Positions 16,214-40,383 are shown, counted from the first letter of the stretch. The stretch is DNA of 64,000 bases from an uncultured Bacilli bacterium (GCA_934162425.1 CAKPIS010000004.1:12821-76820); one strand, 5' to 3'. Notes: generated by a model from the sequence alone, not told the origin. Numbers and translations are program-made.

Positions 16214-16287
16214 GCAGGTGTAGTTTAATGGTAGAACCACAGCCTTCCAAGCTGTATACGGGAGTTCGATTCTCCTCACCTGCTCCA
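16214..16287 (+). tRNA. tRNA-Gly (anticodon UCC), CCA encoded
   Basis: Cloverleaf folded by hand. Acceptor stem gcaggtg/cacctgc, anticodon loop CTTCCAA, T-arm GGTTCGATTCC-like. Length 74 nt. Confidence 0.9.
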
Positions 16288-16390
16288 TTTGAAATCAACT
16301 TACGGACTTAAAAGTTCGTGAGTTTTTATTTTATATAAATACTATAAAAAAAGAGGAAAAAATTATCAGAATAATTTAATCCTCTTTTTT
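16283..16390 (+). repeat. Repeat copy A. It is the tRNA-Gly 3' trailer/terminator (hairpin 16298-16322 plus T-run) and a second A-run/T-run bidirectional hairpin (16346-16390)
   Basis: Core CCATTTGAAATCAACTTACGGACTTAAAAGTTCGTGAGTTTTTATTTTATATAAAT. A 9-bp stem plus TTTTT forms an intrinsic terminator. A second hairpin AAAAAAGAGGA...TCCTCTTTTTT follows. Confidence 0.65.
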
Positions 16391-16497
16391 CTTTTTCTTG
16401 AATACGGGAATAAAATATATGTCTAGCCAGCACTGAATTTGTACTCCCGAACAAATTCTTATATGTGGAAACCCTTAAAATCCCAACCCCTTTTATT

Positions 16498-17277
16498 CTA
16501 TTGGTTTAAATAATAATAAATTATTTTACCAATATTTCCAATTAGTTTTTTATCTCCATCTTTATCGCTTGAATTCCACACAGAAATTCCTATATAAAAT
16601 AATTTGTCTTTAATGTTCATAACTCCAACATCATGGCTTAAATAATCAAGTGAACCTGTCTTGTGGGCATATTTTACAGGTTCAAAGATATATCGCATTA
16701 TTTGATTTTGACAACGTTGATTATATAAAATATTTATTGCTTTCTCACATAACTCGTTATTTAATATCTTCTTACTAAATAATAGAGTAAAAATATCTAA
16801 CATATCTTTTTGGCTCATATAATTATTTAATCCATTTTTTATTGCTTTTTCATCAAGCATATACCTTTGCACATATGTGTTTTTAATGTTTAAAACATTA
16901 ATAATATAATTATTAATATTTTCCATACCAAAATATTTTAACAATACGTTTGTGGCGGTATTATCCGATTCGATTATCATCCAATTTATTAATTCATTTA
17001 TTGAATAGTAATTTTCACCGTTTTCAAATATCTCTGTATCATCCAAGATATCATTTTTTGTTACTAGAATAGTATCATTTAAATTTACTTTTCCACTTTT
17101 TACTTCTTCAAAAATTGCAAGCATTATAGGTACCTTAATTGTTGAAGCAGATACTAATTTTTCAGTACTATTTAAATTATATATTTCATTTTCCAAAGAT
17201 AAATCTTTAATTAAAATTGAAATATTTTCATTCAAGTTCCATATTAATTTTTCTATTTCACTAACTAAATCATTCAT
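16498..17277 (-). CDS. Class A beta-lactamase-like serine hydrolase
   Basis: S-T-I-K (SxxK), the ESDNTATN SDN loop and HKTGS (KTG) motifs. 259 aa. Confidence 0.7.
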   Translation of the reverse strand: MNDLVSEIEKLIWNLNENISILIKDLSLENEIYNLNSTEKLVSASTIKVPIMLAIFEEVKSGKVNLNDTILVTKNDILDDTEIFENGENYYSINELINWMIIESDNTATNVLLKYFGMENINNYIINVLNIKNTYVQRYMLDEKAIKNGLNNYMSQKDMLDIFTLLFSKKILNNELCEKAINILYNQRCQNQIMRYIFEPVKYAHKTGSLDYLSHDVGVMNIKDKLFYIGISVWNSSDKDGDKKLIGNIGKIIYYYLNQ

Positions 17278-17289
17278 TTTTTACTCTCC

Positions 17290-18030
17290 TTAAATAAAAT
17301 TGTAAGTGTTATATGTTGAATCATATTCGAATCCTAATTTTTGTGCTAAACCAACAGAATTAGTATTTGCTGCGTCCCAACTTATTTTTTTATTCTGATC
17401 TAAACATTCTATAATAAGCCTTGATGCCAATGCAGTAGCAATTCCTTTCCTACGATAATCTTCTTTTACTTTTATATTAACTTCAATACCATCTTTATAA
17501 AAAATATTTGATGATGCTACACCAATTATTTCATCATTGTAAATACAGCAAAAACCTATACCATATTTTTTATAGTTATCTGTTATATTTAAAAATTTCA
17601 TTTTTTTTATATTATCAGCTAAAGTTTCATCTATTTTTGCAATTTCAAATTTTTTATCTAAACTATTTATCATTCGATATAAATTTTCTTTATCAAATGT
17701 TGCTTCTTTTTTTATAGAATATCTTTGAGATTTTCGTATATTGCGAGAATATATTTTTTCTATTTTGCTAGCAATGTCATCGCTTGGTATCAATATATAT
17801 TCTTTAAAATTTTTATCAATAATATCCTTTAAATCTTTATCATCTATATTTCCACTTATGAAACAATAATTTCTAACTACTAAAAAAGCAATATTAGGAT
17901 TTCTAACATTATCTACAAATGCTTTCCCCATGACACCATCTAATACACTATTTCCCATATAAAATCTTATATCATTAAATAGTATCTTTATTTCTTTTAA
18001 ATTTTTTTGTTCTGTTACTTCAAATATCAT
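17290..18030 (-). CDS. GNAT family N-acetyltransferase
   Basis: Motif A RRKGIATALA. Start MIFEV has a GGAGGTG RBS. The ORF track shows a longer 18099 start. Confidence 0.65.
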   Translation of the reverse strand: MIFEVTEQKNLKEIKILFNDIRFYMGNSVLDGVMGKAFVDNVRNPNIAFLVVRNYCFISGNIDDKDLKDIIDKNFKEYILIPSDDIASKIEKIYSRNIRKSQRYSIKKEATFDKENLYRMINSLDKKFEIAKIDETLADNIKKMKFLNITDNYKKYGIGFCCIYNDEIIGVASSNIFYKDGIEVNIKVKEDYRRKGIATALASRLIIECLDQNKKISWDAANTNSVGLAQKLGFEYDSTYNTYNFI

Positions 18031-18198
18031 TTTCACCTCCGAAAAAGTATAATTTAATAAGATTATACTATAAAATAGCAAAATACTCCATATTCCCATT
18101 AAACTTTAATAATATTTTATATATAATAATTTTAGAAAGGGAACAAAGTTCGTAATTTGTATGTGATTCGCTCCAGATTGACACCGAACCCTAAATTG

Positions 18199-18233
18199 AA
18201 AAAGATGATTTTGAACGTTAATCATCTTTTCTT
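18199..18233 (-). terminator. Intrinsic terminator overlapping the stop of 18218..18820
   Basis: AAAGATGATT...AATCATCTTT 10-bp stem followed by a T-run on the minus strand. Confidence 0.5.
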
Positions 18234-18820
18234 GTATTAGGAATAAGTTTTTTTACTTTTGGTTTTTCTTGGACTTTTTCCTGAAGTTCTGGAATTACAA
18301 ATAAACCATCAACTTCGTCAAAAGATTCTATATTCTTATAAGTGTCATGCTGTGGTTCATATTCTTTATATTTTTTTAATAGATCTATATATGGTTGAAT
18401 ACCACCTTTTTTTTCAAATTTTTTTGCTCTTTCACGCCAAACAAAAGTCGCTGAACCATCATTAAATGTTGCAAATACTCCGACATTAAAGATTTTATCT
18501 TCATCTAATGATTTAGCCTTAAAACCATCTAAATTAGTTATATTTAGTGCAAGATCATTTGAATTTAAAACGATAAAATTATTTAAATAAAAATATCCAG
18601 GTCCTTTATAAAGCCAATATATAGGCTCCCAAGGAAAAGTTATTTTAGACTGCTCCTTTGTAATTTGAACTTTTCTGTAAACGCCTTGATCCTCTCTAAC
18701 CATAGCAAATAATGCTCGTTTATTTCCTACATCATATGGTCTTAAATATAAAACACTCTCTGGATTTTGCATAATTCTATTTAAATTTTCATCAATATAT
18801 TCTAATTGAATATTACTCAT
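18218..18820 (-). CDS. Hypothetical protein
   Basis: 200-aa ORF with its own terminator. No motifs recognised. Confidence 0.4.
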   Translation of the reverse strand: MSNIQLEYIDENLNRIMQNPESVLYLRPYDVGNKRALFAMVREDQGVYRKVQITKEQSKITFPWEPIYWLYKGPGYFYLNNFIVLNSNDLALNITNLDGFKAKSLDEDKIFNVGVFATFNDGSATFVWRERAKKFEKKGGIQPYIDLLKKYKEYEPQHDTYKNIESFDEVDGLFVIPELQEKVQEKPKVKKLIPNTRKDD

Positions 18821-18922
18821 TATCTAAACCCTCCCTTTGTAGTTAATATTATATCACATTACTTTATTAAATTGCATAATAACTAATTATTATTTAAATT
18901 TATATATTCAGCATATATTTCA

Positions 18923-19024
18923 GCTCCATTTGAAATCAGCTTAAGAACTTAATTGTTCGTAAGTTTTTTTAATAAATAATATCAAAAAAGAGAAAAAATT
19001 ATAAAAATAATTTAATCCCCTTTT
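18923..19024 (+). repeat. Repeat copy B of the tRNA-Gly trailer family
   Basis: GCTCCATTTGAAATCAGCTTAAGAACTTAATTGTTCGTAAGTTTTT, plus a degenerate copy of the second hairpin (AAAAAAGAGAAAAAATTATAAAAATAATTTAATCCCCTTTT). Confidence 0.6.
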
Positions 19025-19086
19025 ATATATTTTTAAATTTATACTACCACACAAATTCTACTATAGAAAATTTCATCTTCCTATTA

Positions 19087-20124
19087 TTAAAAATTAAAAT
19101 CTAAATATACATAATTATCCATATTGTAAGATAAATTATTTTCGATCATTTCTTTAGCAAGTTTACAACACTTTGAAATTCTTTTACCATTAGATAATGG
19201 ATCAATATATCTAATTTTTGCTCCATGATGAACATAATAAACATTTTGAGGTTTCTCTTTTGATGTCTTCACTTTTTTAGCATTTTTCCAAATGTTAAAT
19301 ATATCACCATATTTAGAAGACTCTATAATATCTATTACTTCACTTTCCTTTAATTCATATAAATCCTTTTTAGATATTTTGTTTTCATCGTTTAATCTTT
19401 TTAAAATATCAGCAATTAATTGCATAGAGTATCTAGTTCTATCCTCGCGATATATAATAGATAATCTACTTGTAGTCTTAACAAAACTTCTAGCACATTT
19501 TTTAGTTTTAAATCCTAACTCTATTTCCTTTTCTTCATTAGTTTGTATTTCTATATCATCATATATTTCTTTGATACTTGCTAGATCTAACAATCTATAT
19601 GTAAACAAAGCATTTGATAATGAGTATTCCAATCTATCTGCAGATAATTTAGGTGTATCATTATCAGCAATAGGATATAAATGATAATTATCTATTTCTG
19701 ATACTTTAATATTATCTCTTTTTAATAATGTCATAATTTCTTTTGAATTTTCTATTATTTTTGTTGTTAAATCTTCTGTTGATTCTTGTGTAATATAATC
19801 TCCATTAAGAAAATCTACACAATGCTTAAATGCTGGTGTTGCTATATCGTGAAATAAGCCAGATAAAGTTTGCTTTTTATCATGTGTAAAGTGCCAAACA
19901 ATTAAAGCAACTGCAACAGAATGATCTAAACTTGAAAAGAAAAAATCACTTTCAAACAAATCTGAATATATAGTACCACAAGTAACACTAATATATTGTT
20001 GCAATAATAATTCCTTTGTGTCTATATATTCATTTAACCATTCTGGAAAATCTGGTTCTAATATTTTAAAATATTCTTTTACTTCTGTATTTAAATTATT
20101 ATAATATTTTTTCATTTTTAACAC
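19087..20124 (-). CDS. HD-domain phosphohydrolase family protein
   Basis: H...HD...HD pattern (SLDHSVAVALIVWHFTHDKKQTLSGLFHDIATP). Confidence 0.5.
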   Translation of the reverse strand: MLKMKKYYNNLNTEVKEYFKILEPDFPEWLNEYIDTKELLLQQYISVTCGTIYSDLFESDFFFSSLDHSVAVALIVWHFTHDKKQTLSGLFHDIATPAFKHCVDFLNGDYITQESTEDLTTKIIENSKEIMTLLKRDNIKVSEIDNYHLYPIADNDTPKLSADRLEYSLSNALFTYRLLDLASIKEIYDDIEIQTNEEKEIELGFKTKKCARSFVKTTSRLSIIYREDRTRYSMQLIADILKRLNDENKISKKDLYELKESEVIDIIESSKYGDIFNIWKNAKKVKTSKEKPQNVYYVHHGAKIRYIDPLSNGKRISKCCKLAKEMIENNLSYNMDNYVYLDFNF

Positions 20125-20161
20125 ATCCTTACATTATAAATATGGGTCTAACATAAATCCC

Positions 20162-20845
20162 TTATTTTTGACATATCTCTATAAATTTCTCAAATATCCT
20201 ATTCATATTTTCGTCAGTTTTATATAGACTCTCTGGATGAAATTGGACAGCCATATAAAATTTTTTGGACTCATCTTCAACCACTTCTACTACTCCATCA
20301 TCTGAATAAGCAACACATTTTAAAATTGAACTATCTGCAGTATAAGCTTTATGTCTTGAATTTACCATTATTTCATCTTTACCTATTATTTTATATAATT
20401 TAGAATTTTTATCAATCTTTATTTTATGTACATATTTATCAAAACTTTTATGAGTTTCCTTATTATCAAATCTAAGTACTTTTCCCCCTACTGCACGAAC
20501 AATATTATTATTTCCTGCACAAATTCCTAATATTGGTATATTATTATCATAACAATATTTTGCAACAAAACATTCATATTCATCTGAAAATCCACCACCT
20601 TGCAATATAATTCCATTACATAAGTTTATTTGTTTTATTAAATCTTGTTTTTCTTTTAATGTAAGGTTATCTTTCCAATCGTTTTTTGCTTGTATTTTTT
20701 CGAAGTTAGGTGGTAATATTCCTATTGCAATTGCTTCATTATCAAATATTGCTTGCTTCACTTCATCTCTTATATATGTATCTGTAAAATGATTACATTC
20801 TTTATTATAATGTTTACTTACTATTCCAATTATTACTTTATTCAT
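20162..20845 (-). CDS. Class I glutamine amidotransferase-like / peptidase C26 (gamma-glutamyl hydrolase family)
   Basis: Cys nucleophile ILGICAG and His motif VQFHPE. Confidence 0.7.
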   Translation of the reverse strand: MNKVIIGIVSKHYNKECNHFTDTYIRDEVKQAIFDNEAIAIGILPPNFEKIQAKNDWKDNLTLKEKQDLIKQINLCNGIILQGGGFSDEYECFVAKYCYDNNIPILGICAGNNNIVRAVGGKVLRFDNKETHKSFDKYVHKIKIDKNSKLYKIIGKDEIMVNSRHKAYTADSSILKCVAYSDDGVVEVVEDESKKFYMAVQFHPESLYKTDENMNRIFEKFIEICQK

Positions 20846-20916
20846 CTATCTTACCCTCTCTTAATGAATACTCATATTGTTCATTATACCATATAATTCA
20901 TAGTGCTACCCCCCCA

Positions 20917-21504
20917 CTAAATATATTTTTCTATTTCACCCATAATATTATTTAAAGTTTCTATTCTATTTTTTGATGTATCATAGTATTTAATTCCATA
21001 TTTAGGGCATTCTTTTTTTAGCATTTCATTTGCAGCATACCAATCAATAGCATGTTTTTTTAGATATTCTCTTGATAATCCAAATGTCCAATCTTTTTCA
21101 ATATCGTGTTCAATACAAAGTTCTACAATTTCATCTACATTTAAATTACCAAGTCCAAGACATACAACAATAGTTTGTTCAAAATCAATCATTTCTTCAA
21201 CTATTTTGGGATGTAATTGCCCACTTTCTAATATATATCCATAATGATTTTCATCTTTTGAAATAGAAGAATTAAAAAATTCTAATAATGTTTTTTGAAA
21301 ATATTCTCCATGTTCAAACTCTTTTTGTTTATCAACATTGGTTCTGTAATATTTTTCTTTGTCTTCTGCTCTAATCATTGCCCACTTTAAGGAATCACTA
21401 TGCACTAAGCTATAATTATTGTATTTAGCTTTTAACATCTTGCTTAATGTAGTTTTTCCTGCTCTGCCTATTCCCATTATTAAGATATTTTTCATATTCT
21501 TCAT
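20917..21504 (-). CDS. P-loop kinase-like protein (AAA_33 / small-molecule kinase fold)
   Basis: Walker A GIGRAGKTT. Size about 190 aa. Confidence 0.5.
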   Translation of the reverse strand: MKNMKNILIMGIGRAGKTTLSKMLKAKYNNYSLVHSDSLKWAMIRAEDKEKYYRTNVDKQKEFEHGEYFQKTLLEFFNSSISKDENHYGYILESGQLHPKIVEEMIDFEQTIVVCLGLGNLNVDEIVELCIEHDIEKDWTFGLSREYLKKHAIDWYAANEMLKKECPKYGIKYYDTSKNRIETLNNIMGEIEKYI

Positions 21505-21507
21505 CTC

Positions 21508-22731
21508 CTAACTTTCTTGTATCATTCTATATAAATGTAAACTAATAAATATTTCAATAACTGATAAAATTATTAGGATTGTTATTACTACGATCATTGG
21601 ATTATTAACTAAAATTGCTGTAAAACTTAAGCTCATAATTGCTCTTACAATTTTTCTTGATAAATCTAACGTAGTAAGTAATGATTGTTGTTGTTCTTTT
21701 TCTGCTTTTTTAAGTGCTAAATCTTGCATATATACCTTAAAAGGATCTCTTATAAATAAAATTATAACATATCCCAAACTCATAATTAGTATTTTCAAAA
21801 TAATTGAGTATGTGATTAAATATCCTCCTACCATTAAGACAAGAGATAATGATAATAAGAATGGTAATAAACATCCTACTTTGTCTTTGTATTTTTTATG
21901 TATTTTATTAAATGAAATATTTGAAATTACTCTCACTATTCTTGATATGCACAATATTCCACCTATTATCAATGCAGTCTTTTCTACATCAAAATTTTTT
22001 AGTAATTCTTGTTGTATAAATAATTTACCATTTGATTGTCCAGAATTTACTATGGGATAAAAAAGTCCATAAGATATTATTATAAATATCATAATTTTTG
22101 AGTAACGTATTTTTTTAATTTGTCTTTCTTTTTTTTCATAAGATTTACCTTTCATACAATCATTATTTGAATAATCAATCATATTAAGAGATAACACAAA
22201 GCAGATAAAGCAAAATAATATGCAACCTATCATTGGTAGATAATTATTTATATTAAACATAATACTCGCAACAAATGATATTATCATTGTTACTACTGCA
22301 TAAATTGCATTAGCATTAGTTCTAAACTTTATATATTCATTCTCTATATTTTGTAATTCTAAATTGTTTTTTAATATTGCGTTTATCATATTTTGAAATG
22401 TGAAAGCAACTTCGTATAATATTTTTCCTATTACTATGATAATATAATTTGTACCAAATGTTAGTAAAATACTTGAGATTAAAAGTAATAATGATCCTAA
22501 TCTTACAGACTTTGTATTTCCTATCCTTTTGATTATACTAAGTAAAGGTACTTGGAGTAATATACAAGTTATCAATGATATGGATGTTAAAAATACAATT
22601 TGTGAAGCTGTAAATTTTTTTACTATTGTTAGAAATAATGTATCTATTGCAATCCAAAATAATAAATCCCCAGATAGTCCTGCAAACCACGGAAATAATT
22701 TATTAAATTTCTTTAAATTTTGTTCGTTCAT
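21508..22731 (-). CDS. Multi-TM transporter, MFS-like
   Basis: 407 aa with about 12 hydrophobic segments. Confidence 0.5.
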   Translation of the reverse strand: MNEQNLKKFNKLFPWFAGLSGDLLFWIAIDTLFLTIVKKFTASQIVFLTSISLITCILLQVPLLSIIKRIGNTKSVRLGSLLLLISSILLTFGTNYIIIVIGKILYEVAFTFQNMINAILKNNLELQNIENEYIKFRTNANAIYAVVTMIISFVASIMFNINNYLPMIGCILFCFICFVLSLNMIDYSNNDCMKGKSYEKKERQIKKIRYSKIMIFIIISYGLFYPIVNSGQSNGKLFIQQELLKNFDVEKTALIIGGILCISRIVRVISNISFNKIHKKYKDKVGCLLPFLLSLSLVLMVGGYLITYSIILKILIMSLGYVIILFIRDPFKVYMQDLALKKAEKEQQQSLLTTLDLSRKIVRAIMSLSFTAILVNNPMIVVITILIILSVIEIFISLHLYRMIQES

Positions 22732-22968
22732 ATCTATACTCCATATCCTTCCTACTTTAAAATTCCTAATCCTAAATAAAATTCTTTATAATTGTTCTTT
22801 TATTTTCTTTTTCAAATTCTTCTAAGAATGTTTTATTTAAATCTGCTATAACATTATAGGGATCTATCCCAATTTTCATATGGTAACTTCCAATACAAAA
22901 TGAAGTTTTAAACTTATAAAAATTATATTATCAACCACACTATTTACCTCATAAAATATATTAACACC

Positions 22969-24156
22969 TTATTTAGTTCCATAAGGATTAGTATGCTTAC
23001 AACTTTTCAGTGCTCTTACGCCAACATAATTTTGGTATGTCAAGAATGGTATACTTACTAAAAAAATTAGAGTATAATTAGTTCCAATAAGATAACCGGC
23101 AATCATGTAGGCCAATCCTCTGCCTATATATGATAGAATATGTTTATAATTTGCAAAGTGTAATTGTAAATGTTTTGGTATTTCGTTTGTTAGTGGTGCA
23201 TCTATTATTGGACTATAAAAATCACTTAGTATATCTATCCACAAAATTGCAATAAATGAAAAAATAGTATTCCTAGTTAGCCCTGCAATTAATAAAATAA
23301 ATATACTTGAAATATTTGACCATTTAAAAAACTTAATTCTATTTATTTTATCACTTTTAAAAGAAACTAATATGCCTAAACAATTGCAAAATATCTGAAA
23401 AACTGCCCAAAATATTCCAGCAACACTTTTATCTATTCCTAAGTTATCTGTAAGTATCACCATAAAAAAACCTAAAATTAAAAATAATTGTAACCTTCTA
23501 GAGCAAGAATATTTTATATAATCCTTTACGCTATCTATTTTAAGAACTTTCTTCATAATATTAGATTCATTTAAAACTATTTTTTCGTTTTTAACTTTAA
23601 ATAAGAGAAAAAAACAGGTTAAAAATAAGAAAATACAAATTATTATACAAATCTGATAAGAAGTAAAATTATGAAGTACTATACCTATGAAAATCCCAGC
23701 AACAATAGTACCTATATTACTTGCCAAATCATATAAGTTATCCTTTAATCCAAAAAACGCATTATTGATTTTAATTTGTGTTAATAATGGATACATCCAT
23801 TGAATTATAAGAGTGTCCACCAATAAATCAATACAACTTTGAAAAATCATAACATATTTATTACTAATTAATAACATACTAACAAAATTGACTAATCTTA
23901 TAATTAAAGCAATTTGAATAGACACTCTTATTCCATTTTTAATAACTTTGTTTCCAATTAATATAGAAAAAAAAGCAGCCATAATTAAGGCAATAAAAAA
24001 AATTATTCCTAAGCCTTCAATAGTTAATCCTTTTTCAATCAGCCATATTGGTTTAAAAACTTCCCATAATCCAAGGCTCAATCCTAATACTATATATACT
24101 ATATATATTGATAAATATTGTTTCTTTAATTCTACCATAACCTTCTTACACTCCAT
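22969..24156 (-). CDS. Multi-TM transporter, MFS-like
   Basis: 395 aa with about 12 hydrophobic segments. Confidence 0.5.
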   Translation of the reverse strand: MECKKVMVELKKQYLSIYIVYIVLGLSLGLWEVFKPIWLIEKGLTIEGLGIIFFIALIMAAFFSILIGNKVIKNGIRVSIQIALIIRLVNFVSMLLISNKYVMIFQSCIDLLVDTLIIQWMYPLLTQIKINNAFFGLKDNLYDLASNIGTIVAGIFIGIVLHNFTSYQICIIICIFLFLTCFFLLFKVKNEKIVLNESNIMKKVLKIDSVKDYIKYSCSRRLQLFLILGFFMVILTDNLGIDKSVAGIFWAVFQIFCNCLGILVSFKSDKINRIKFFKWSNISSIFILLIAGLTRNTIFSFIAILWIDILSDFYSPIIDAPLTNEIPKHLQLHFANYKHILSYIGRGLAYMIAGYLIGTNYTLIFLVSIPFLTYQNYVGVRALKSCKHTNPYGTK

Positions 24157-24295
24157 ATAAAAGTAATCTTTAATTCTAAACTATTATACTATAGAACATC
24201 AAAATTTTCTATACCCCATTAAATTTAATCATATTGCATATATAACATTTTTGTAAAGAGAATATTTTGGTTTGAAAGCTTATGCTTATTATTAG

Positions 24296-24390
24296 TCCTA
24301 TTTGAAATCAACTTACATACTTAATTGTTCGTAAGTTTTTATTTTATATAAATTAGTCATTATGAGAAAAATCCCAATCCTTTTTATATA
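24296..24390 (+). repeat. Repeat copy C of the tRNA-Gly trailer family, preceded by a partial tandem duplicate at 24270-24295
   Basis: TCCTATTTGAAATCAACTTACATACTTAATTGTTCGTAAGTTTTTATTTTATATAAATTAGTCAT. Upstream, TTTGAAAGCTTATGCTTATTA mimics the copy-D form. Confidence 0.6.
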
Positions 24391-25583
24391 TAATTTAATT
24401 TAGTATTTTTATTTAACCTAAATAATATAATTCTATATACTAAACTTCTACAATAAAAATCTACTAAATTTACTATTCCAAATATAAATAAAGAGATTTT
24501 ACTATTTATAAATAATAAACATATTAAAAATCTTATTATTACACCTATTGTAGAACCAATTAATAGGATAAATGATTTTCCTTGTGAAATGCATAGAGTT
24601 TTGTATGTTTCATATTGATAAAGTCCAAATACAGCAGTTGAATAAAATATGATATAAGGAAAACATTTATATAAAGGTAAACTACCATGAGATATAAATA
24701 GATATGCGAATGCAAAAATAAAATTTAACAAAATAATTAATGAAAAGCATTTGTTTTTCATCTTCATACAATTGTTATATTGTTCCTCATAAGTTTTACC
24801 ACTTGGAACTTTAATCATTAAAGTTGCTTGATATGCATTTGTAATAATTTCTAATGATAAGCATACTGAATAGCAAATAGTATGTATTGAATAATTTTCA
24901 GTTCCCATACGACTTGCTAAAACACCATATAGTAATAGAAATATTCTAGATAATACTCTTTCAGATGAGTATGCAAATCCATACTTAACTACGTTTTTTA
25001 ATGATTCTTTATCTGGATACTCAAATTTTAATTTTAAATTACATAACATATATATTATTGATATAATCCAAGAAACAATTGTTGCAATAAATAATAATAG
25101 CAGGTTTTTAGTTAATAAATAAGCAATCGCATCCAATCCAACTAAAGAAATATAATAAACTATTAGACTTTTTCTGTATAGCTTTAATTCACCTTTTAAC
25201 CTTATCATTTCAAAAATTGCATTTGCCAATCTTCCTATAACTATATATGCAACGTAAAAATTTAATAGTAAAGATAACATATCTTTTTGAATGTTTGTTA
25301 AGTCAAATATATTTACTATAATACTTTTACAACATAAAACAATTATTCCCATTAATAAACCAAATAAAATATTAAACCATAAATATTTCCATTCGTTTTT
25401 TCTAGTTGTTCTATATGTATAAGTACCAATTTCGCCAAAAGATTTAAAAATAGAATCAATCAATAAGAAACTACCTGTTACTACTATTGCATCAATACTT
25501 ATTAAATTGTTAAAAGCAGAGTCAATGCTATCAGCAATACTCATAAATATAAAACTTATTAAAATAGATATAAATTCTCCCAT
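24384..25583 (-). CDS. Polytopic membrane protein (MOP/MATE/Wzx-like?)
   Basis: 399 aa with about 12 TM segments. Family uncertain. Confidence 0.45.
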   Translation of the reverse strand: MGEFISILISFIFMSIADSIDSAFNNLISIDAIVVTGSFLLIDSIFKSFGEIGTYTYRTTRKNEWKYLWFNILFGLLMGIIVLCCKSIIVNIFDLTNIQKDMLSLLLNFYVAYIVIGRLANAIFEMIRLKGELKLYRKSLIVYYISLVGLDAIAYLLTKNLLLLFIATIVSWIISIIYMLCNLKLKFEYPDKESLKNVVKYGFAYSSERVLSRIFLLLYGVLASRMGTENYSIHTICYSVCLSLEIITNAYQATLMIKVPSGKTYEEQYNNCMKMKNKCFSLIILLNFIFAFAYLFISHGSLPLYKCFPYIIFYSTAVFGLYQYETYKTLCISQGKSFILLIGSTIGVIIRFLICLLFINSKISLFIFGIVNLVDFYCRSLVYRIILFRLNKNTKLNYI

Positions 25584-25718
25584 TACTTACCTCAATTTGT
25601 ATTATAATAAAATTATACTATATTTAGGCCTTTTTTTCTATGTTCTAATTGGAATTTAGCAAAAATTCACATATAATATTTTAGGAAGATAACATAGTTC
25701 ATAGCCTGTTGTTTATTA

Positions 25719-25810
25719 GTCTCATTTGAAATTAGCTTATGTACTTAATTGTTCGTAAGTTTTTAATTTATATAAATTGATCATCAAAAAAGAAAGACAA
25801 TGCCAACTAG
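25719..25810 (+). repeat. Repeat copy D of the tRNA-Gly trailer family
   Basis: TCTCATTTGAAATTAGCTTATGTACTTAATTGTTCGTAAGTTTTTAATTTATATAAATTGATCATCAAAAAAGAAAGACAATGCCAACTAGC. Confidence 0.6.
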
Positions 25811-25825
25811 CCCAGTCTTTAAACT

Positions 25826-27010
25826 TTACTTATCGTTTTTACTCATCTTTGATAAAAATATTCCCATCAGAATAATGCTAAATGTTAAAAATAACATTAA
25901 AACATTCAAATATTTTCCTGAATCAACTATGGATACTATTAATAATAATATATAACCTATAATTCTGCCTGAATTTAATACAAGTTCTCTTAATGACCAA
26001 AATTCCATTTGATTATTATTTTTTATCAACGGAATATTGGACAAATTAAATAGTCTAATATCAATAATAAAATTTAAAACGCCTACCAATGAACTATAAC
26101 AAAAATAATATAAACATAAGGCAACATTATTATTTAATATTAATAACAGAATTAAACTAACAACTGGAATAATTGTGCAAATAACAATCATATTTTTATC
26201 ATTTCTATTTTTATAATATTTGGTATATATATACTGAAATATTATAGTTAATAAACTAGAAATAGACGAAAAAATTCCCAAATTCAAATCAGTTTTAAAA
26301 GCATTAATTATCAATAATGTAATTAAAACTTTAAGAGCTCCATCTGCAATACTCATACCCTTAAAAAAATCTAATTTTATTATGTTTTTTACATCCTTAT
26401 TCTTTAATATTTTTTTTAACGAAAGAAAAGGAGTGAATTTTGTATTCTTGTACGTAGTAGGTTTTAATAAAAAAGATATAACTATTTGTATAATTGATAT
26501 TATTAATATAATTATAGCGGTCAACACAAAATTAGTGGTAGTTATTATCGTTCCTAAAACTATTGGAGTTAATATACCTACTATTGTAACAATTGTTTTT
26601 CTTTTAAATTCATATTGAGATCGTATATCATTACTTACTTTATCTGATAAAAATAAATTATATGGGTAAAAATATGTTATCATTGATGTACCATATAAAA
26701 ATGAAACAAGCGGTAAATAATTTAATATTTTCTCCTTTAATATAATAATTGTTAGTACATATACTGCATTTAATATTACTCCAATTCTAAACATGCCAAC
26801 TTGAAACTTATTTTTTATTATATATCCTAACATTAACCCAAAAAATCCTACACATAAAAAAACAAGAATATTATAAATGGATAAATCAACTAATGAATTC
26901 TTTGATATCTTAAAAAAATAGGCTGTTAAAAATGGACCTGAAAAAATAGTTATTATTTCTCTTAATACATTTGAAACTATTAATATATTTGCTTCTTTAT
27001 TTTTGACCAT
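25826..27010 (-). CDS. Multi-TM transporter, MFS-like
   Basis: 394 aa with about 12 TM segments. Confidence 0.5.
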   Translation of the reverse strand: MVKNKEANILIVSNVLREIITIFSGPFLTAYFFKISKNSLVDLSIYNILVFLCVGFFGLMLGYIIKNKFQVGMFRIGVILNAVYVLTIIILKEKILNYLPLVSFLYGTSMITYFYPYNLFLSDKVSNDIRSQYEFKRKTIVTIVGILTPIVLGTIITTTNFVLTAIIILIISIIQIVISFLLKPTTYKNTKFTPFLSLKKILKNKDVKNIIKLDFFKGMSIADGALKVLITLLIINAFKTDLNLGIFSSISSLLTIIFQYIYTKYYKNRNDKNMIVICTIIPVVSLILLLILNNNVALCLYYFCYSSLVGVLNFIIDIRLFNLSNIPLIKNNNQMEFWSLRELVLNSGRIIGYILLLIVSIVDSGKYLNVLMLFLTFSIILMGIFLSKMSKNDK

Positions 27011-27710
27011 TTAAAATCTCCTTTATTAAACTGGATACACTATTATATTCTTTAGTAGCGACTAATTTTAATTCTGATACTGAATCTTCCATACAGTAAC
27101 CATTAAATTCATGTACCATTTCTATATCACTATAACTATCACCAATGACATACGTATTAGCTTTATTAACATTATTACAAAATTTAATTAACCAATATAT
27201 AGCCTCAGCTTTATTTGTTTTATTAGAAATAATTTCAACAGAATTTGTATTCACATAATAAGCTTTAACATAATTTCCATATTTGTTGTTAATATAATTT
27301 GCTTTATCTAATGCGTACTCTTTTGAAATGTATTTTGCGTTTATTTTAGTTAAATTTTTGTGTTCAAATGTTACTCTGCTGTCAATTCCACTACAACAAA
27401 AATAATTTATACTTTCACTTAAATTTAAATCATTTTGTATTTGTGAAATAATCTCATTAGAAATACAAATATTAAATAAAACTTTATTATTTTTATCTAT
27501 AATGGTCGCTCCATGATTTAAAATAGCATAATTATAATTAAACTTATATATATCCAATTTATTATGAAAATCTAAATAACTTCTTCCAGTGGCAATAGCA
27601 AATAAATTACTTGAATTCATAAATTTATTTACATATATTTTATTATTTTCTATGTCATCGTCATTTAGATAAAATGTCTGATCGTAGTCACTTATTAATA
27701 ATTTTGTCAT
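26997..27710 (-). CDS. HAD-superfamily hydrolase, Cof-like (HAD-IIB)
   Basis: Motif I DYDQT (DxDxT) and motif IV GDSYSDIEM. Confidence 0.7.
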   Translation of the reverse strand: MTKLLISDYDQTFYLNDDDIENNKIYVNKFMNSSNLFAIATGRSYLDFHNKLDIYKFNYNYAILNHGATIIDKNNKVLFNICISNEIISQIQNDLNLSESINYFCCSGIDSRVTFEHKNLTKINAKYISKEYALDKANYINNKYGNYVKAYYVNTNSVEIISNKTNKAEAIYWLIKFCNNVNKANTYVIGDSYSDIEMVHEFNGYCMEDSVSELKLVATKEYNSVSSLIKEILNGQK

Positions 27711-27865
27711 AATCTTTCTCCTTTCCTTATTTTTATTAATTATACATTAAAATACAAAGTTTTTCTATACTCCCTTGAAAATATATAGAAAAATGATATA
27801 ATGAATTTATCAGAGAGACTTAATCAAATCTTATAGTCTTAATTTCGAATACGTGTATAGTTAAG

Positions 27866-27968
27866 GCTCCATTTGAAATCAGCTTACGGACTTAAAAGTT
27901 CGTAAGTTTTTATTTTTATATAAATTAGTCATCAAAAAAGAAAGACAATGCTAACTAGCACCTCTAAC
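27866..27968 (+). repeat. Repeat copy E of the tRNA-Gly trailer family. It is the copy most similar to copy A
   Basis: GGCTCCATTTGAAATCAGCTTACGGACTTAAAAGTTCGTAAGTTTTTATTTTTATATAAATTAGTCATCAAAAAAGAAAGACAATGCTAACTAGC. It shares the gctcca start with the tRNA 3' end. Confidence 0.6.
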
Positions 27969-28032
27969 TCCACGCTATTTTTTTATAGAACCCCTATTAT
28001 AAAATAAAAAGATAGAATTAACTATCTTTAAA

Positions 28033-28959
28033 TTAAAAACTACCTGAAGCTCCTCCTCCACCAAAGGAACCTCCTCCACCAGAAGAACGTCCTCCTCCAC
28101 TAGAAGAGCTTCCACCATCAAAGAAACTATCTGAAGTAGAACTAGAATTACTACTATTAAAACTAATCGAACCAGGTTTTATTACATATGCAAGTATAAA
28201 TGAAAATACATTAAAAGGTGATACTATCATTGCTATATTAATTAAATTTTTCAATAAAAAACAAATAAATAATGTATTAACAATTATAAAGTATAAAATT
28301 CCTATTATAACTTTAATAAATTTTTTCTTTTTTTTACTCATTAGCCTTAAAATTACACCTAAAATAAAACCTATTGTAATACCTACATAAATGTTTCCAA
28401 CAGCATTAAAAGAACTATTATTACTATTAGCTGGTGCATCATATGATAAATTTAAATTATTAGCATCAACTATTTCTTTATATATAGCATCATAACCATT
28501 TTTAATTCCATCATTCCAGTTATTATTTTTAAGATAAGGTATCATATAAGTATCCCTTATTCTACCAGCCTTACCATCTGTAATTATACCTTCTAACCCG
28601 TATCCTACTTCTATTCTTAACTTTCTATCTTCATATGATACTAAAATTAATATACCATCATTTTTGTCTTTACTTCCTATTTTAGCTTTACGAGCAAACT
28701 CTAAAGAATAATCTTCTATTGTTTTTCCTTCTAAGTTTTTTACGGTAGTAACAACTATTTGGATGCCAGATGCATTATTTAATGCTGTACTCTTATCTAT
28801 TATATATTTTTTAGTTTCACTATCTAATACATTAGCATAATCATTTACATAAAAATCACTAGTTGGATTTACAATAGCTTTTACGTTTGGAATAAACAAA
28901 AAAAAGAAAAGAATAAGTATTAAAATCTTAATCTTATTCAAATGTAACTTCTGGAACAT
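28033..28959 (-). CDS. TPM-domain protein (YgcG-like) with TM segment and Gly/Ser-rich tail
   Basis: Signal peptide, TPM-like region, TM segment, then a C-terminal GGGRSSGGGGSFGGGG tail. Paired with LemA. The start is uncertain (ATG 28959 or 29007) and overlaps the lemA 3' end. Confidence 0.6.
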   Translation of the reverse strand: MFQKLHLNKIKILILILFFFLFIPNVKAIVNPTSDFYVNDYANVLDSETKKYIIDKSTALNNASGIQIVVTTVKNLEGKTIEDYSLEFARKAKIGSKDKNDGILILVSYEDRKLRIEVGYGLEGIITDGKAGRIRDTYMIPYLKNNNWNDGIKNGYDAIYKEIVDANNLNLSYDAPANSNNSSFNAVGNIYVGITIGFILGVILRLMSKKKKKFIKVIIGILYFIIVNTLFICFLLKNLINIAMIVSPFNVFSFILAYVIKPGSISFNSSNSSSTSDSFFDGGSSSSGGGRSSGGGGSFGGGGASGSF

Positions 28960-29512
28960 TATTTGCACTCTCTTTAGCTTCAAAATAAGCTTTATTTTCA
29001 AAACCAAACATACTAGCTATTATATTCTTTGGAAAACTCTTTATAGTCTTATTATAATTTTTTACAGCCTCATTATAATCTCTACGTGCTACAGCAATTC
29101 TATTTTCAGTTCCTGCAAGTTCATCTTGTAAATTAATAAAATTTGTATTAGCTTTTAAATCTGGATAATTTTCAACAACTACTGCTAAAGCATTTAAAGC
29201 ATTTGTAAGTTCTTGATTAGCATTTGCCTTTTCTTCTATACTCTTTGAATTAATCAAATTCTCACGTGCTGTTGTAATATTATCTATTACCTTTTCTTCA
29301 TGACTAGCATAACCTTTTACAGTATTAACCAAGTTTGGTATTAAGTCAGCTCTTCTTTCTAGTTGAACAGATATGTCTGCATACTTTCCTTCAACTTCTT
29401 CTTGTTTGTTAACAAGTCCATTATATGTGCTAGCAAATATAATTACCATCAAAATAACTATTGCAGCTATCACAATTCCAATTATTGTACCTTTTTTCAT
29501 ACTTACCTCCAC
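28934..29512 (-). CDS. LemA family protein
   Basis: N-terminal TM segment and a LemA-like sequence (NKQEEVEGKYADISVQLERRADLIPNLV). Confidence 0.8.
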   Translation of the reverse strand: MEVSMKKGTIIGIVIAAIVILMVIIFASTYNGLVNKQEEVEGKYADISVQLERRADLIPNLVNTVKGYASHEEKVIDNITTARENLINSKSIEEKANANQELTNALNALAVVVENYPDLKANTNFINLQDELAGTENRIAVARRDYNEAVKNYNKTIKSFPKNIIASMFGFENKAYFEAKESANNVPEVTFE

Positions 29513-29595
29513 ATTTATCTTAACATACTAATATCTATATTACAACAAACATCTAGACATTTTACAAGGAGTTTACAAACTTTAAATTATACTTT

Positions 29596-30120
29596 TTATG
29601 TATTTCCACTTTCCTTTTTACTTTTTATAACTTTTTTTCTTCCTAGCCCTATAAATTTAGGATATTCTTTTGGATGCTTAAATACTTCAAGTGAATTTTT
29701 CTTATCCATTAAACTTACTACCCAACTTTCTTTATACTTAGGTGGTTTAATATTTAATGGAAACATATGTTTTACTATAATATCTTCTACCCTTTTATTC
29801 ATAAGCTGTGGAAATGTCTTTCTTGCATTTTCTAAAGCTTCCCTTGCATGAACAAAACCATGCATTTTTGTAAATTTCTTCTTTTGGGTGTTTTCTTGCC
29901 ATGGTTTATAATAAAAGTCATGTAATAATGCTCCAACTGATATATCTCTTACGTTTAAATGATGTTTTTTAGCAAATTTATATGAAGCGTAAGCAACTTC
30001 TAGGCTATGTTGATACACTGATTTATTTGGATGATGTAAATACTCTTTTCTCTTAATAAACTCTTCTGAATTTATTATATCTTTTACATATTCTAAGAAC
30101 TCCTCATCATATTTTTCCAT
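29596..30120 (-). CDS. HD-domain phosphohydrolase
   Basis: H..H...LLHD motif (LHHPNKSVYQHSLEVAY...ALLHDF). Confidence 0.6.
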   Translation of the reverse strand: MEKYDEEFLEYVKDIINSEEFIKRKEYLHHPNKSVYQHSLEVAYASYKFAKKHHLNVRDISVGALLHDFYYKPWQENTQKKKFTKMHGFVHAREALENARKTFPQLMNKRVEDIIVKHMFPLNIKPPKYKESWVVSLMDKKNSLEVFKHPKEYPKFIGLGRKKVIKSKKESGNT

Positions 30121-38699: not shown

Positions 38700-38790
38700 T
38701 GGCGGAGTGAGAGGGATTTGAACCCTCGCGCCAGTTGCCCAGCCTACACCCTTAGCAGGGGCGCCTCTTCAGCCTCTTGAGTATCACTCC
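38700..38790 (-). tRNA. tRNA-Ser (anticodon GCU), long variable arm, CCA encoded
   Basis: Reverse complement folds as GGAGTGA...CTGCTAA loop...long variable arm...GGTTCAAATCC...TCACTCCGCCA. Length 91 nt. Confidence 0.9.
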
Positions 38791-38856
38791 AGCTCAACAT
38801 AAACAATTTTACACTATATTGTTTATTTGGTCAAGTTTATTATTATAAATTCTTAA

Positions 38857-39741
38857 TTATTCATCATATTTAATATGATTTATAACTTTGTATAATTTAG
38901 AAATTTTCTTTTTGTTTTCTTCATTATCAAAATATTTTTTTACTTTTCTTTTACTTTTTTCATCTATTTGGTACTTAATATAGCATTCTATAATTGGTTC
39001 TAAAAAATATGAGCTATTACCACAAAAACCAATCAATGAGTATAAATCATCTTCAATATCATTTATGGTTTCTATTGCTCTTTCATCTATTTTTTGATTA
39101 TTTAAAATTAAGTACTTATTATATAAGTAATAATTTTCTATAATGTTTAACATAACAAGTTCATAATTTTCAAAATTTTCTTCATGAAGTTCAATTAATT
39201 TTTCTGCTGTATACATAATTGTATTATCAAGAGCTTCTTTTTTTGTATCGGTTAGTTCACTAAAAATATCATACTGATCAAATATTTCATCTACTGTAAA
39301 AATATTGTAATGAACAATATCAAGTATATGACATGGAAAAATTTTTGTTAAATATGACTTTTTATCATATGAGGCATTTATATATTCTCTTCTAGTATCA
39401 TAATCTAGAAGTACAAAATTATAATTATAATCAAGCAAAATTAATAAGTCATTTATGCTCATTTTATCAATATAATCATCAATATTATCTATTTTTTCAC
39501 ATAATTTTATTTTTTCTTTATATTCTTTATTGTTTGGTCTAAATTTAGCTTCTTCTCTTAGACAAATATAAGATGCCGAAAGTAAAAGTCCTACTATATA
39601 TTTTGAAAAATCACTTTTGTCTTTTAATTTTTCATACATGCTATTAATTACACTATTATACTCTACTTCATCGGCTGAAATCGAATCGTATAAGACTGAT
39701 AAGTCATTTCTTACGTTGTCATTTATTTTTACTACTTTCAT
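38857..39741 (-). CDS. Hypothetical protein
   Basis: 294-aa ORF wedged between tRNA-Ser and a six-tRNA cluster. No motifs recognised. Confidence 0.4.
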   Translation of the reverse strand: MKVVKINDNVRNDLSVLYDSISADEVEYNSVINSMYEKLKDKSDFSKYIVGLLLSASYICLREEAKFRPNNKEYKEKIKLCEKIDNIDDYIDKMSINDLLILLDYNYNFVLLDYDTRREYINASYDKKSYLTKIFPCHILDIVHYNIFTVDEIFDQYDIFSELTDTKKEALDNTIMYTAEKLIELHEENFENYELVMLNIIENYYLYNKYLILNNQKIDERAIETINDIEDDLYSLIGFCGNSSYFLEPIIECYIKYQIDEKSKRKVKKYFDNEENKKKISKLYKVINHIKYDE

Positions 39742-39824
39742 ACAAAACTCCCTTGTTTTTATAATAACATATATTTATGTTTTTTGTTATATATATTTTA
39801 TGCAAAAGGAATTTTTTTTAGCAT

Positions 39825-39860
39825 AATAAAACCTTGTTTTTTAATTAAAACAAGGTATTT
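39825..39860 (-). terminator. Intrinsic terminator of the tRNA cluster
   Basis: ACCTTGTTTT/AAAACAAGGT stem followed by a T-rich tract on the minus strand. Confidence 0.5.
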
Positions 39861-39868
39861 ATTACAAA

Positions 39869-39957
39869 TGGTGCCCGAGGCCGGACTTGAACCGGCACGA
39901 GGTATGAATCTCGCAGGATTTTAAGTCCTGTGCGTCTACCAATTCCGCCACTCGGGC
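39869..39957 (-). tRNA. tRNA-Leu (anticodon UAA)
   Basis: Long variable arm, anticodon loop CTTAAAA, CCA encoded. Length 89 nt. Confidence 0.85.
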
Positions 39958-39961
39958 AACA

Positions 39962-40037
39962 TGGTGTCCAGTACGCGACTTGAACGCGTGACCCTCTGAT
40001 TAAAAGTCAGATGCTCTACCGACTGAGCTAACTGGAC
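39962..40037 (-). tRNA. tRNA-Lys (anticodon UUU)
   Basis: Anticodon loop CTTTTAA. Length 76 nt. CCA encoded. Confidence 0.85.
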
Positions 40038-40052
40038 ATACTACAAAAATTT

Positions 40053-40128
40053 TGGTTGCCTCGGCAAGATTCGAACTTGCGCATGTCAGAGTCAAAGTCT
40101 GATGCCTTACCACTTGGCGACGAGGCAA
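40053..40128 (-). tRNA. tRNA-Gln (anticodon UUG)
   Basis: Anticodon stem TCAGA/TCTGA, loop CTTTGAC. Length 76 nt. Confidence 0.8.
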
Positions 40129-40136
40129 TTCTTAAG

Positions 40137-40220
40137 TGGTGGGGAGAAATGGATTCGAACCATTGAACCCGAAGGAACAGATTTACAGTCTGCCGCGTTT
40201 AACCACTTCGCTACCTCCCC
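40137..40220 (-). tRNA. tRNA-Tyr (anticodon GUA)
   Basis: Long variable arm, loop CTGTAAA. Length 84 nt. Confidence 0.8.
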
Positions 40221-40225
40221 ATATA

Positions 40226-40301
<76 letters not shown>

Positions 40302-40306
40302 ATAAA

Positions 40307-40383
40307 TGGTGGACGCTATAGGACTCGAACCTATGACCCCCTGCTTGTAAGGCAGGTGCTCTAACCAACTGAGCTAAGCATCC
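40307..40383 (-). tRNA. tRNA-Val (anticodon UAC)
   Basis: Loop CTTACAA. Length 77 nt. Confidence 0.85.

Follow-up and report, generated by a model that had tools for sequence, protein, structure and literature searches.

Behind a tRNA-Gly(UCC) gene in a 64,000-nucleotide (nt) stretch of DNA from an uncultured Bacilli bacterium (GCA_934162425.1, CAKPIS010000004.1:12821-76820; the window) lies an 11.7-kb region which is very probably a tandem array of six small, recombinase-less integrative elements inserted at the 3' end of that tRNA gene. As part of the same reading, the units of the array are very probably cis-mobilizable and cassette-like, with lengths of 0.75 to 5.4 kb. They have a common anatomy, in which the left end is formed by a core of ~53 nt (Block L), usually extended by one of two tails (R1 or R2), the cargo genes are on the opposite strand, and a conserved right end of ~135 nt consists of a promoter-like region, a motif resembling a tRNA T arm (rTTyrnAnAy) and GCTCCA. 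Since the right end is promoter-like and the left end terminator-like, each unit can be regarded as a self-contained expression cassette with standard ends. Coordinates are positions in the whole window, on the plus strand unless stated otherwise, and the features are collected in Table 1. The window has a G+C content of 25.5% and contains cotJB and cotJC, which makes the host a low-GC spore-former; a CNNM gene lies to the left of the tRNA-Gly gene.

The repeat and the units of the array

Using a 40-nt degenerate pattern (TTTGAAATCARCTTANNNACTTAANNGTTCGTAAGTTTTT, at most one mismatch), we found Block L five times, always on the plus strand (copies A to E), and an nhmmer profile of the core returned the identical five copies. 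The pattern gave no match in 100 shuffles and no sixth copy within the 64-kb window. The original prediction, which had been made from the DNA of the window alone, had indeed reported five copies in the same orientation with all intervening genes opposed to them, and every open reading frame (ORF) between the core copies is on the minus strand. Its further claim that the 3' flank of the tRNA forms a genuine intrinsic terminator fits copies A and E, in which a hairpin of 12 pairs, four of them GC, is followed by TTTATTTT and scored as terminator-like; in copies B to D the hairpin is weakened. Folding energies are -15.6 and -14.2 kcal/mol for A and E (z -5.3 and -4.8, respectively) and range from -8.8 to -10.7 for B to D. 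With a stable GC-containing hairpin and an immediate U-run, copies A and E fit the definition of an intrinsic terminator and are putative terminators. The 5' arm of the copy A hairpin is the right-end motif AGTYCGTRAGTTG in inverted form. As a side observation, the 3' arm of Block L repeats the right-end motif in direct orientation.

Variation among the copies had been thought to be confined to three positions in the 5' arm of the hairpin; however, the loop (AA or TT), TCA[A/G]C, AAAT[C/T]A and one base of the 3' arm (G in copy A) vary too. Within copies B to E (18929-27925), ten substitutions fall in the 23-nt 5' part and none in the 14 nt of 3' arm plus T-run (Fisher p = 0.014). The second hairpin tail (R1) is common to copies A and B, as predicted, while the tail TTAGTCATCAAAAAAGAAAGACAATGC (R2), previously assigned to D and E only, is present in C as well. 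GCTCCA, the last six nt of the tRNA, stands directly 5' of B and E, where it had been noticed, and also of A; before C and D it is degenerate (GTCCTA and GTCTCA). An Rfam scan of the whole window at gathering thresholds returned tRNAs only and no known RNA family over the repeat.

Promoter-like sites of the form TAGAAA-17-TATAAT are found in the right-end modules at 24211, 25640 and 27767, and the sequences upstream of copies D and E represent two of the right-end families seen in other genomes. A further boundary, at 18170-18175, is devoid of Block L: here a right end with the X6 motif plus GCTCCA (18131-18175) is followed by GATTGACACC, homology with three loci from other assemblies (L006, L028 and L120) ends exactly at 18175, and in another (L131) the identical GATTGACACC is joined to a different cassette, whose right end is alike in type. 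We therefore count six units, not five. Unit 2, on the far side of this boundary, has a left end of another type (GATTGACACCGAACC). Beyond copy E, which is the left end of the sixth unit, no right end was recognised.

In agreement with the prediction that the window lacks a recombinase, tblastn found no window homologue of the large serine recombinase (LSR), orf92 or TnpV that accompany the core elsewhere (see below), and no recombinase Pfam match was present among the called genes, which cover about 6.7-37.9 kb of the window. Because there is no LSR gene in the window, its units are only recombinase-less derivatives, comparable to cis-mobilizable elements (CIMEs).

The core in other genomes

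An exact-pattern scan of one genome per species located the core in at least 118 contigs, with 77 distinct assemblies among the 80 matches listed. The carriers among these listed matches are nearly all uncultured human-gut Bacilli or Clostridia (CAG-type metagenome-assembled genomes, MAGs), and many matches lie at contig ends. Of 120 copies, 74 come immediately behind a tRNA CCA end; the targets are mostly tRNA-Gly (UCC, GCC and CCC) together with tRNA-Thr (CGU and GGU) and tRNA-Cys, and single cases of tRNA-Leu(CAA) and tRNA-Lys(CUU). The other 46 copies are preceded by non-tRNA right ends, which fall into few families, have the motif rTTyrnAnAy in common, always in the same register, and in most cases terminate with GCTCCAT or a sequence close to it. 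On the other side, a conserved 92-aa ORF (orf92) is found within about 55 nt after the core in 73 of the 120 copies, linked to it by TTTATTTTATATAAAACTTTAAAAGTTCTCTTTCTAGAAAGGAGGAC. Left and right contexts of the core combine freely across more than 70 genomes, and two or three copies in the same orientation occur at loci L055, L012, L087, L069 and L090.

Since a near-identical core stands behind different tRNAs and non-tRNA ends, and usually before a module of orf92, LSR and TnpV, we conclude that Block L is element DNA which was turned into a tRNA trailer by insertion. This reverses the direction assumed in the original prediction, where the repeat was derived from the tRNA-Gly trailer: it is the left end of a mobile element, found behind different tRNAs. 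Native trailers are visible on the far side of complete elements. The sequences that follow GCTCCA in L006, L028 and L120 were tried as native trailers and rejected, as they resemble diverged relatives of Block L. At least two more left-end families, starting with TAAGATAAAATCGTCGCACC (before a 612-aa LSR in L121) and TTGAGGAATYTGTTCGAAC, follow X6-GCTCCA, and the element superfamily is therefore wider than our search pattern. The 2.9-kb recombinase module had no DNA match in PLSDB or INPHARED, sensitive blastn included, and IMG/VR held only seven contigs with the core, so that the element is not obviously a phage.

The recombinase module of related elements

The order at locus L066 is tRNA-Gly, core, orf92, a gene for a 596-aa protein and a gene for a 121-aa protein, the last being TnpV (PF14198). 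Sequence reached far enough to be read beyond orf92 in L066, L012 and L025 only, and in each of these orf92 is followed by an LSR of 593-596 aa (Resolvase, Recombinase and Zn_ribbon_recom domains) and TnpV. The LSR matches a PHROG integrase at 7e-105. Its best NCBIfam match is CcrB, with 148.6 bits against a cutoff of 900, and it is therefore not a Ccr recombinase. The closest solved relative is the catalytic domain of the TP901-1 integrase, and the match to the solved N-terminal fragment of TnpX (a 120-residue chain) is weak (E 6e-8).

Directly after tnpV, L066 (5531-5673) is homologous to the window directly after copy A (16329-16470), and copy A plus R1 thus corresponds to the autonomous element minus orf92-LSR-TnpV. 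Direct repeats of TTTTATATAAA flank the module in L066 (2835-2850 and 5520-5535), with a counterpart at 16325-16345 in the window. Copy A of the window may represent a precise loss of orf92-LSR-TnpV, and the module may be gained and lost independently of the whole element. We also observed that the tnpV stop codon lies inside the right-hand TTTTATATAAA repeat of L066. The possibility that orf92-LSR-TnpV alone is the mobile unit, inserting at TATATAAA inside Block L, was considered; it would account for the flanking TTTTATATAAA repeats, whereas the limits of complete elements are at GCTCCA. A right end of the X2 type, 92% identical to that of unit 5, precedes Block L and orf92-LSR in L012.

Functions linked to mobilisation were also found near the core. 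In L012, L046 and L121, R1 stands before a NikA/MbpA-like ribbon-helix-helix gene, and L123 and L128 have a relaxase gene (PF03432). Within R1 are a hairpin that is terminator-like in both directions (about 16350-16395) and the 8-bp inverted repeat GAATTTGT..ACAAATTC (about 16440-16465). Given its place before the NikA/MbpA-like gene, and given that a relaxase occurs in L123 and L128, R1 is a candidate origin of transfer (oriT), perhaps a relic that persists in units with cargo alone; of these mobilisation features the window retains R1 and its inverted repeat only, and no nick site was identified.

Insertion signature and predicted crossover

One element type, composed of Block L, the recombinase module, R1, cargo and an X6 right end (...GGTTCGTAAGCTGTTGCTTAACYGCTCCA), was found at three tRNA targets, namely tRNA-Gly (L104), tRNA-Thr (L101) and a 3' fragment of tRNA-Trp (L025). 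The sequences that follow GCTCCA(T) in the three cases are unrelated to each other, and those of L101 and L025 read as hairpin-plus-T-run terminators. Hence attL (tRNA...GCTCCA, then Block L) and attR (right end...GCTCCA(T), then an unrelated trailer) are paired in L104, L101 and L025, as they are in L120, and the ends of L104, L101 and L025 constitute the attL/attR signature of insertion at a tRNA 3' end. The tRNA-Trp fragment in L025 (about 5028-5075), which begins at the anticodon loop, has an intact tRNA-Trp at a distance of 2.6 kb and may itself be an att remnant of another integrative element.

The same locus gives a hint of where the strands may be exchanged. In L025 attL reads ATCCCCT/CCATTTG and attR reads AACCGCT/GCCAATT, the partners differing on both sides of a common CT. 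The pair is compatible only with an exchange inside this CT, which places the predicted crossover at the CT of GCTCCA, or C72-U73 of tRNA-Gly. An imperfect inverted repeat is centred on the CT. In X6 ends, AGTTCGTAACTTG begins 24 nt before it, and at the same distance after it lies the end of the inverted AGTCCGTAAGTTG, which forms the 5' arm of the Block L hairpin; 11 of 13 outer positions match. In tRNAs the counterpart, GTTCGA of the T-loop, is 20 nt from CT, 4 nt nearer than the motif is in the joint of right end and Block L. Serine integrases use att sites with a 2-bp crossover, and their attP half-sites are about 5 bp longer than their attB half-sites. By analogy, the att layout found here would fit the serine-integrase picture.

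Strain variation and transfer

Look-ups with exact proteins yielded 20 loci (L119-L138) from human-gut metagenome assemblies, several of them from one contig. Most of these loci have flanks 97-99.9% identical to the window, and the arrangement of the window was found again in several samples (L119/L129, L123/L133, L125 and L131-L132). Whole units differ between these loci. L121 is without units 3 to 5, and unit 2, with its 200-aa hypothetical protein, meets the TPM gene via one Block L; on its tRNA side, extra cargo and an orf90-LSR612-TnpV-NikA module with a different left end stand in the same array. Beside this LSR module, within L121 12483-20780, a gene cluster with the look of defence cargo encodes an MCM-like AAA ATPase, a ResIII helicase and an N6_N4 methyltransferase. 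L124 is without unit 3, and a right end of the family that precedes copy E stands before its copy A. L130 and L134 have an extra NUDIX plus AP-endonuclease unit at the copy D junction, with a decayed Block L on its far side, and L131 has another cassette in place of unit 1 at an identical junction. Other units are found between the tRNA side and unit 1 in L122/L126, L123/L128 and L124.

Individual units also occur in other settings. In L120 and L127, unit 1 (98.1% identity over 1966 nt, extending from the tRNA to 18175) follows a different tRNA-Gly and has unrelated flanks. The first gene of unit 3 (345 aa, 90% identical) is found after tRNA-Gly (L075) or tRNA-Thr (L039) followed by Block L and R1, and L146 has tRNA, Block L and R1 up to 16484 as in the window, then different cargo. 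The original prediction had read the locus as serial accretion at the tRNA-Gly 3' end, each event regenerating an att-like copy; a stack of horizontally acquired units with att-like junctions is supported by the whole-unit differences between conspecific loci and by the presence of the bla-GNAT unit at another tRNA-Gly.

The sequence beyond copy E varies too, with TPM/LemA in the window, a gene of the REP-associated tyrosine transposase (RAYT) type plus other cargo in L060, and a reverse transcriptase in L124 (REP, repetitive extragenic palindromic). The HAD gene of L060 is 98.5% identical to that of the window, and RAYT/TGTCAATGGGGACGGAG takes the place of the R2 tail and the TPM genes. A RAYT-type Y1 transposase (PF01797) with the REP-like TGTCAATGGGGACGGAG was seen directly after Block L at L060 6333-7060, and likewise in L120, L021 and L053. 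In L124 (3490-4960, about 27900-29600 of the window), TPM/LemA give way to a 318-aa RVT_1 reverse transcriptase, and the region upstream of its gene looks structured; this locus, which lies beside a degenerate Block L, looks like a retron.

Proposed mechanism and alternative explanations

In the mechanism we propose, the LSR would recombine a circular joint, consisting of right end, GCTCCA and Block L and forming an imperfect inverted repeat of ~50 bp, with a tRNA 3' end. Exchange at the CT of GCTCCA would regenerate the tRNA, and Block L would become the new tRNA trailer and supply a replacement terminator. Autonomous forms in other gut Firmicutes carry orf92, an LSR of ~595 aa and TnpV between Block L and R1, and loss of this module would give rise to small cassettes mobilizable in cis or trans. 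Repeated integration into existing junctions would then stack the units, leaving joints of right end and Block L between them. Units without the module would move only by an LSR acting in trans or by homologous exchange between common ends.

Several points weigh against this account of the array. The contigs compared showed neither an excision product nor a circular joint, nor an attB that was truly empty. The empty site that the original prediction expected, with tRNA-Gly beside TPM/LemA, was not found: the nearest approach is L121, where the gene for the 200-aa hypothetical protein abuts TPM via one core, and an empty-site scan of metagenomes with the species-specific tRNA promoter yielded two contigs, of which L146 is occupied and L147 ends inside the tRNA. 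A cognate LSR of the Block L type was not found in this species, the LSR of L121 being only 28% identical and preceded by a different left end. The CT crossover relies on one natural attL/attR pair and a symmetry argument made post hoc, and the junctions at tRNA-Lys(CUU) (L041, about 7865-7870) and tRNA-Leu(CAA) (L037, about 291-297) read CACCAT instead of CTCCAT, which a strict CT overlap does not predict. Standard serine integrases are not known to use attL or attR as substrates without a directionality factor, a point for which the stacking step does not account; joints C and D, with degenerate GCTCCA and weak hairpins, may be dead. Finally, the data compared are all metagenome assemblies, in which repeats of 50-200 nt could give chimeric joins; these are disfavoured because the arrangements recur in independent assemblies, k141 included, and only long reads would exclude them.

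Homologous recombination between common ends is a serious partial rival where reshuffling within the array is concerned. On this explanation the units are LSR-derived, but shuffling, loss and stacking in the array result from RecA-dependent homologous recombination after DNA uptake, and the internal copies are inert scars. The common ends (Block L, R1/R2 and right-end modules) are, at 50-200 nt, long enough for such exchange, and the weak hairpins of copies B to D, the degenerate GCTCCA at C and D, the absence of an LSR from the window by tblastn and the decayed Block L beside the extra cassette of L130 all fit this explanation, as do the TTTTATATAAA repeats around orf92-LSR-TnpV if the module was removed by repeat-mediated deletion. 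However, first insertions into naive tRNAs share only GCTCCA(T) between their ends, unit boundaries fall at GCTCCA even where Block L is absent (18175, and the same junction in L131), and left and right contexts of the core are freely combined across more than 70 genomes. As an account of the array, we consider it rather unlikely.

The alternatives in which no serine recombinase takes part fare worse. A generic, genome-wide family of REP-like or terminator repeats, with incidental clustering, would explain the good terminator-like hairpin, the multiple copies in many MAGs with many matches at contig ends and the RAYT gene that adjoins one copy in L060 and L120; yet the five copies of the window are crowded into 11.7 kb, the remaining 52 kb being free of them, the orientation is uniform within each locus, 73 of 120 copies precede orf92-LSR, and the RAYT-linked TGTCAATGGGGACGGAG is a different repeat. 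Copies in other genomes are not scattered over unrelated intergenic sites, a pattern that the original prediction had named as contrary to its reading, since 74 of 120 abut a tRNA 3' end and the rest stand behind the right-end motif in fixed register. This rival is thus largely refuted and highly improbable. Small cassettes in one orientation with an imperfect palindrome between them also recall an integron or a similar array, in which a tyrosine recombinase would use the repeat as attC; the original prediction had named an integron-like cassette array as another possibility. The recombinase linked to the repeat is, however, a serine recombinase, and no tyrosine recombinase Pfam match was found in the called genes (about 6.7-37.9 kb of the window) or in related arrays. 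The RYYYAAC/GTTRRRY core of attC is absent, AACTTACGGAC / GTTCGTRAGTT does not fit it, promoter-like right ends and terminator-like left ends are present on every cassette, and the anchor is a tRNA 3' end rather than attI; an integron in the strict sense is extremely improbable, and the likeness is one of function only. Local tandem duplication of the tRNA-Gly trailer with paralogous transporter genes might be suspected from the four transporter genes of similar length in tandem between copies. The array proteins show no pairwise similarity at E < 0.01, and the units occur separately in other genomes, by which tandem gene duplication is refuted and its probability negligible.

Relation to known systems and significance

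Tn4451/Tn4453 is a clostridial mobilizable element which combines a large serine recombinase (TnpX) and TnpV with mobilisation functions; Tn4451 has low target specificity and GA dinucleotide ends, and forms no tRNA-anchored arrays. The elements described here share with Tn4451 the pairing of an LSR with TnpV (PF14198), and differ from it by their tRNA-anchored arrays. SCCmec also uses a large serine recombinase, and has its hot spot at the 3' end of rlmH, where tandem composites, including ccr-less cassettes, carry short direct repeats at their joints. SCCmec and the present elements have in common the large serine recombinase, the use of one chromosomal hot spot where a conserved gene ends, the recombinase-less cassettes in tandem and the short direct repeats at the joints. 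Here, by contrast, a tRNA takes the place of rlmH as the target, the recombinase is encoded by a single gene, and neither host range nor cargo is the same.

Like integron arrays, the units are ordered, small, exchangeable cassettes of one orientation with imperfect palindromes between them; unlike integrons, they are linked to a serine recombinase which itself resides inside a cassette, and they have promoter-like ends of their own and neither attC/attI nor a fixed platform. We tentatively propose, as a possibility that we would put somewhat below even, that they form a serine-recombinase counterpart of the integron, in which a shared pool of recombinase-less expression cassettes with one to five genes would be excised, exchanged and stacked in trans at tRNA CCA ends by a few LSR-carrying cassettes in more than 70 species of uncultured gut Firmicutes, the left end serving as both half-site and replacement terminator.

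Accretion is well described for integrative and mobilizable elements (IMEs) and CIMEs, in which decay leaves recombinase-less units with their att sites still in place and newcomers integrate into a resident att, giving tandem arrays (PMC5704250). As in ICESt1/ICESt3-type elements and streptococcal IMEs, integration here is site-specific and beside a conserved gene end, and NikA/MobC-like and relaxase genes are present in relatives. Site-specific IMEs with a serine recombinase insert inside dispensable genes, tRNA 3' ends being the domain of tyrosine integrases (PMC5704250), whereas the present family of serine recombinases goes with tRNA 3' ends and the tRNA is preserved; moreover, the units are far smaller (down to one gene) and have standardised promoter- and terminator-like ends that recur in more than 70 genomes. 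The ssrA islands of Dehalococcoides are tandem islands downstream of the tmRNA gene, whose boundaries are short repeats of the tmRNA 3' end, with a CcrB-like serine recombinase module at the attL side; islands without the integration module also occur and are considered cis-mobilizable (PMC3146451). Their target lies in the ssrA T-loop, with a 20-bp repeat, and a second, small serine recombinase is among the six genes of their module (PMC3146451). Our array resembles them in its tandem, module-less units behind a tRNA gene, with a CcrB-like recombinase in relatives. In contrast to the ssrA islands, the target is the last bases of ordinary tRNAs, 6-7 nt are shared, the module is orf92-LSR-TnpV, and the visible repeat is a 53-nt, element-borne, terminator-like block. 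Our literature search found these analogues and no description of the Block L element family.

The array accounts for the strain-variable region between tRNA-Gly and TPM/LemA in an uncultured gut species, whose cargo includes a beta-lactamase-like gene, acetyltransferases and transporters, with defence-like genes in relatives. It also points to an unusual niche, in that a widespread serine recombinase family is found at the last bases of tRNAs, which reviews assign to tyrosine integrases. Were the att model true, a compact, conserved attP of ~50 bp and a near-universal attB at tRNA ends would be of interest for following horizontal transfer between gut bacteria and as an addition to serine-integrase tools. 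For annotation, caution is advised, as a "tRNA trailer/terminator" can be mobile-element DNA.

Features of the window

Most of the predicted cargo functions were borne out by Pfam, and unit 3 carries genes for the 345-aa hypothetical protein, a C26 amidotransferase, a P-loop kinase-like protein and two MFS transporters. An HD-domain gene that had been included in the list (29596-30120) lies outside 16283-27968, however, and the proposed "MOP transporter" relies on a sub-threshold MATE match of the 399-aa protein in unit 4.

Table 1. Features of the tRNA-Gly array, with positions in the window
Feature	Position	Strand	Remarks
tRNA-Gly(UCC)	16214..16287	+	ARAGORN; Rfam tRNA, 69.4 bits
GCTCCA, last 6 nt of tRNA-Gly	16282-16287	+	attL-type junction: tRNA arm and Block L
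Unit 1	16288-18175		bla, GNAT
Block L copy A, left end of unit 1	16288..16340	+	12-bp hairpin and T-run
R1, conserved left-end extension	16341..16484	+	blastn homology to L066 5531-5673
Class-A beta-lactamase-like gene, unit 1	16498-17277	-	Pfam
GNAT acetyltransferase, unit 1	17290-18099	-	Pfam; called as 246 aa in other assemblies
Right-end module, unit 1	18042..18175	+	Promoter-like region for minus-strand cargo; X6 motif TTAGAAAG..AGTTCGTAAYTTG..; GCTCCA 18170-18175
Unit 2	18176-18928		200-aa hypothetical protein (18218-18820, gene on minus strand); own right end, GCTCCA 18923-18928
Unit 3	18929-24300		Five genes; cargo and right end 19087..24300, minus strand
Block L copy B	18929..18980	+	Hairpin weakened; degenerate R1 follows, to about 19060
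Right-end module, unit 3	24169-24300		Degenerate GTCCTA 24295-24300
Unit 4	24301-25724		One membrane protein (399 aa, within 24384..25724, minus strand); weak MATE similarity
Block L copy C	24301..24353	+	Hairpin with two mismatches; R2-type tail follows
Right-end module, unit 4			Promoter-like site 25640-25612; degenerate GTCTCA 25719-25724
Unit 5	25725-27871		MFS, HAD
Block L copy D	25725..25777	+	Most diverged; R2 tail with minus-strand terminator-like hairpin
MFS transporter, unit 5	25826-27010	-	
HAD hydrolase, unit 5	26997-27710	-	
Right-end module, unit 5	27725-27871		Promoter-like site 27767-27739; X2 motif; GCTCCA 27866-27871
Sixth left end (copy E)	from 27872		Right end not recognised
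Block L copy E with R2 tail	27872..27960	+	Hairpin intact (core starts at 27872)

Two minor observations concern other parts of the window. The 3' part of the TPM-domain gene (28046-28141) contains tandem repeats of 18/21 nt that encode a low-complexity tail rich in Gly and Ser. Further downstream, seven tRNA genes on the minus strand (Ser, Leu, Lys, Gln, Tyr, Thr and Val; 38700-40383) stand without an adjacent Block L.

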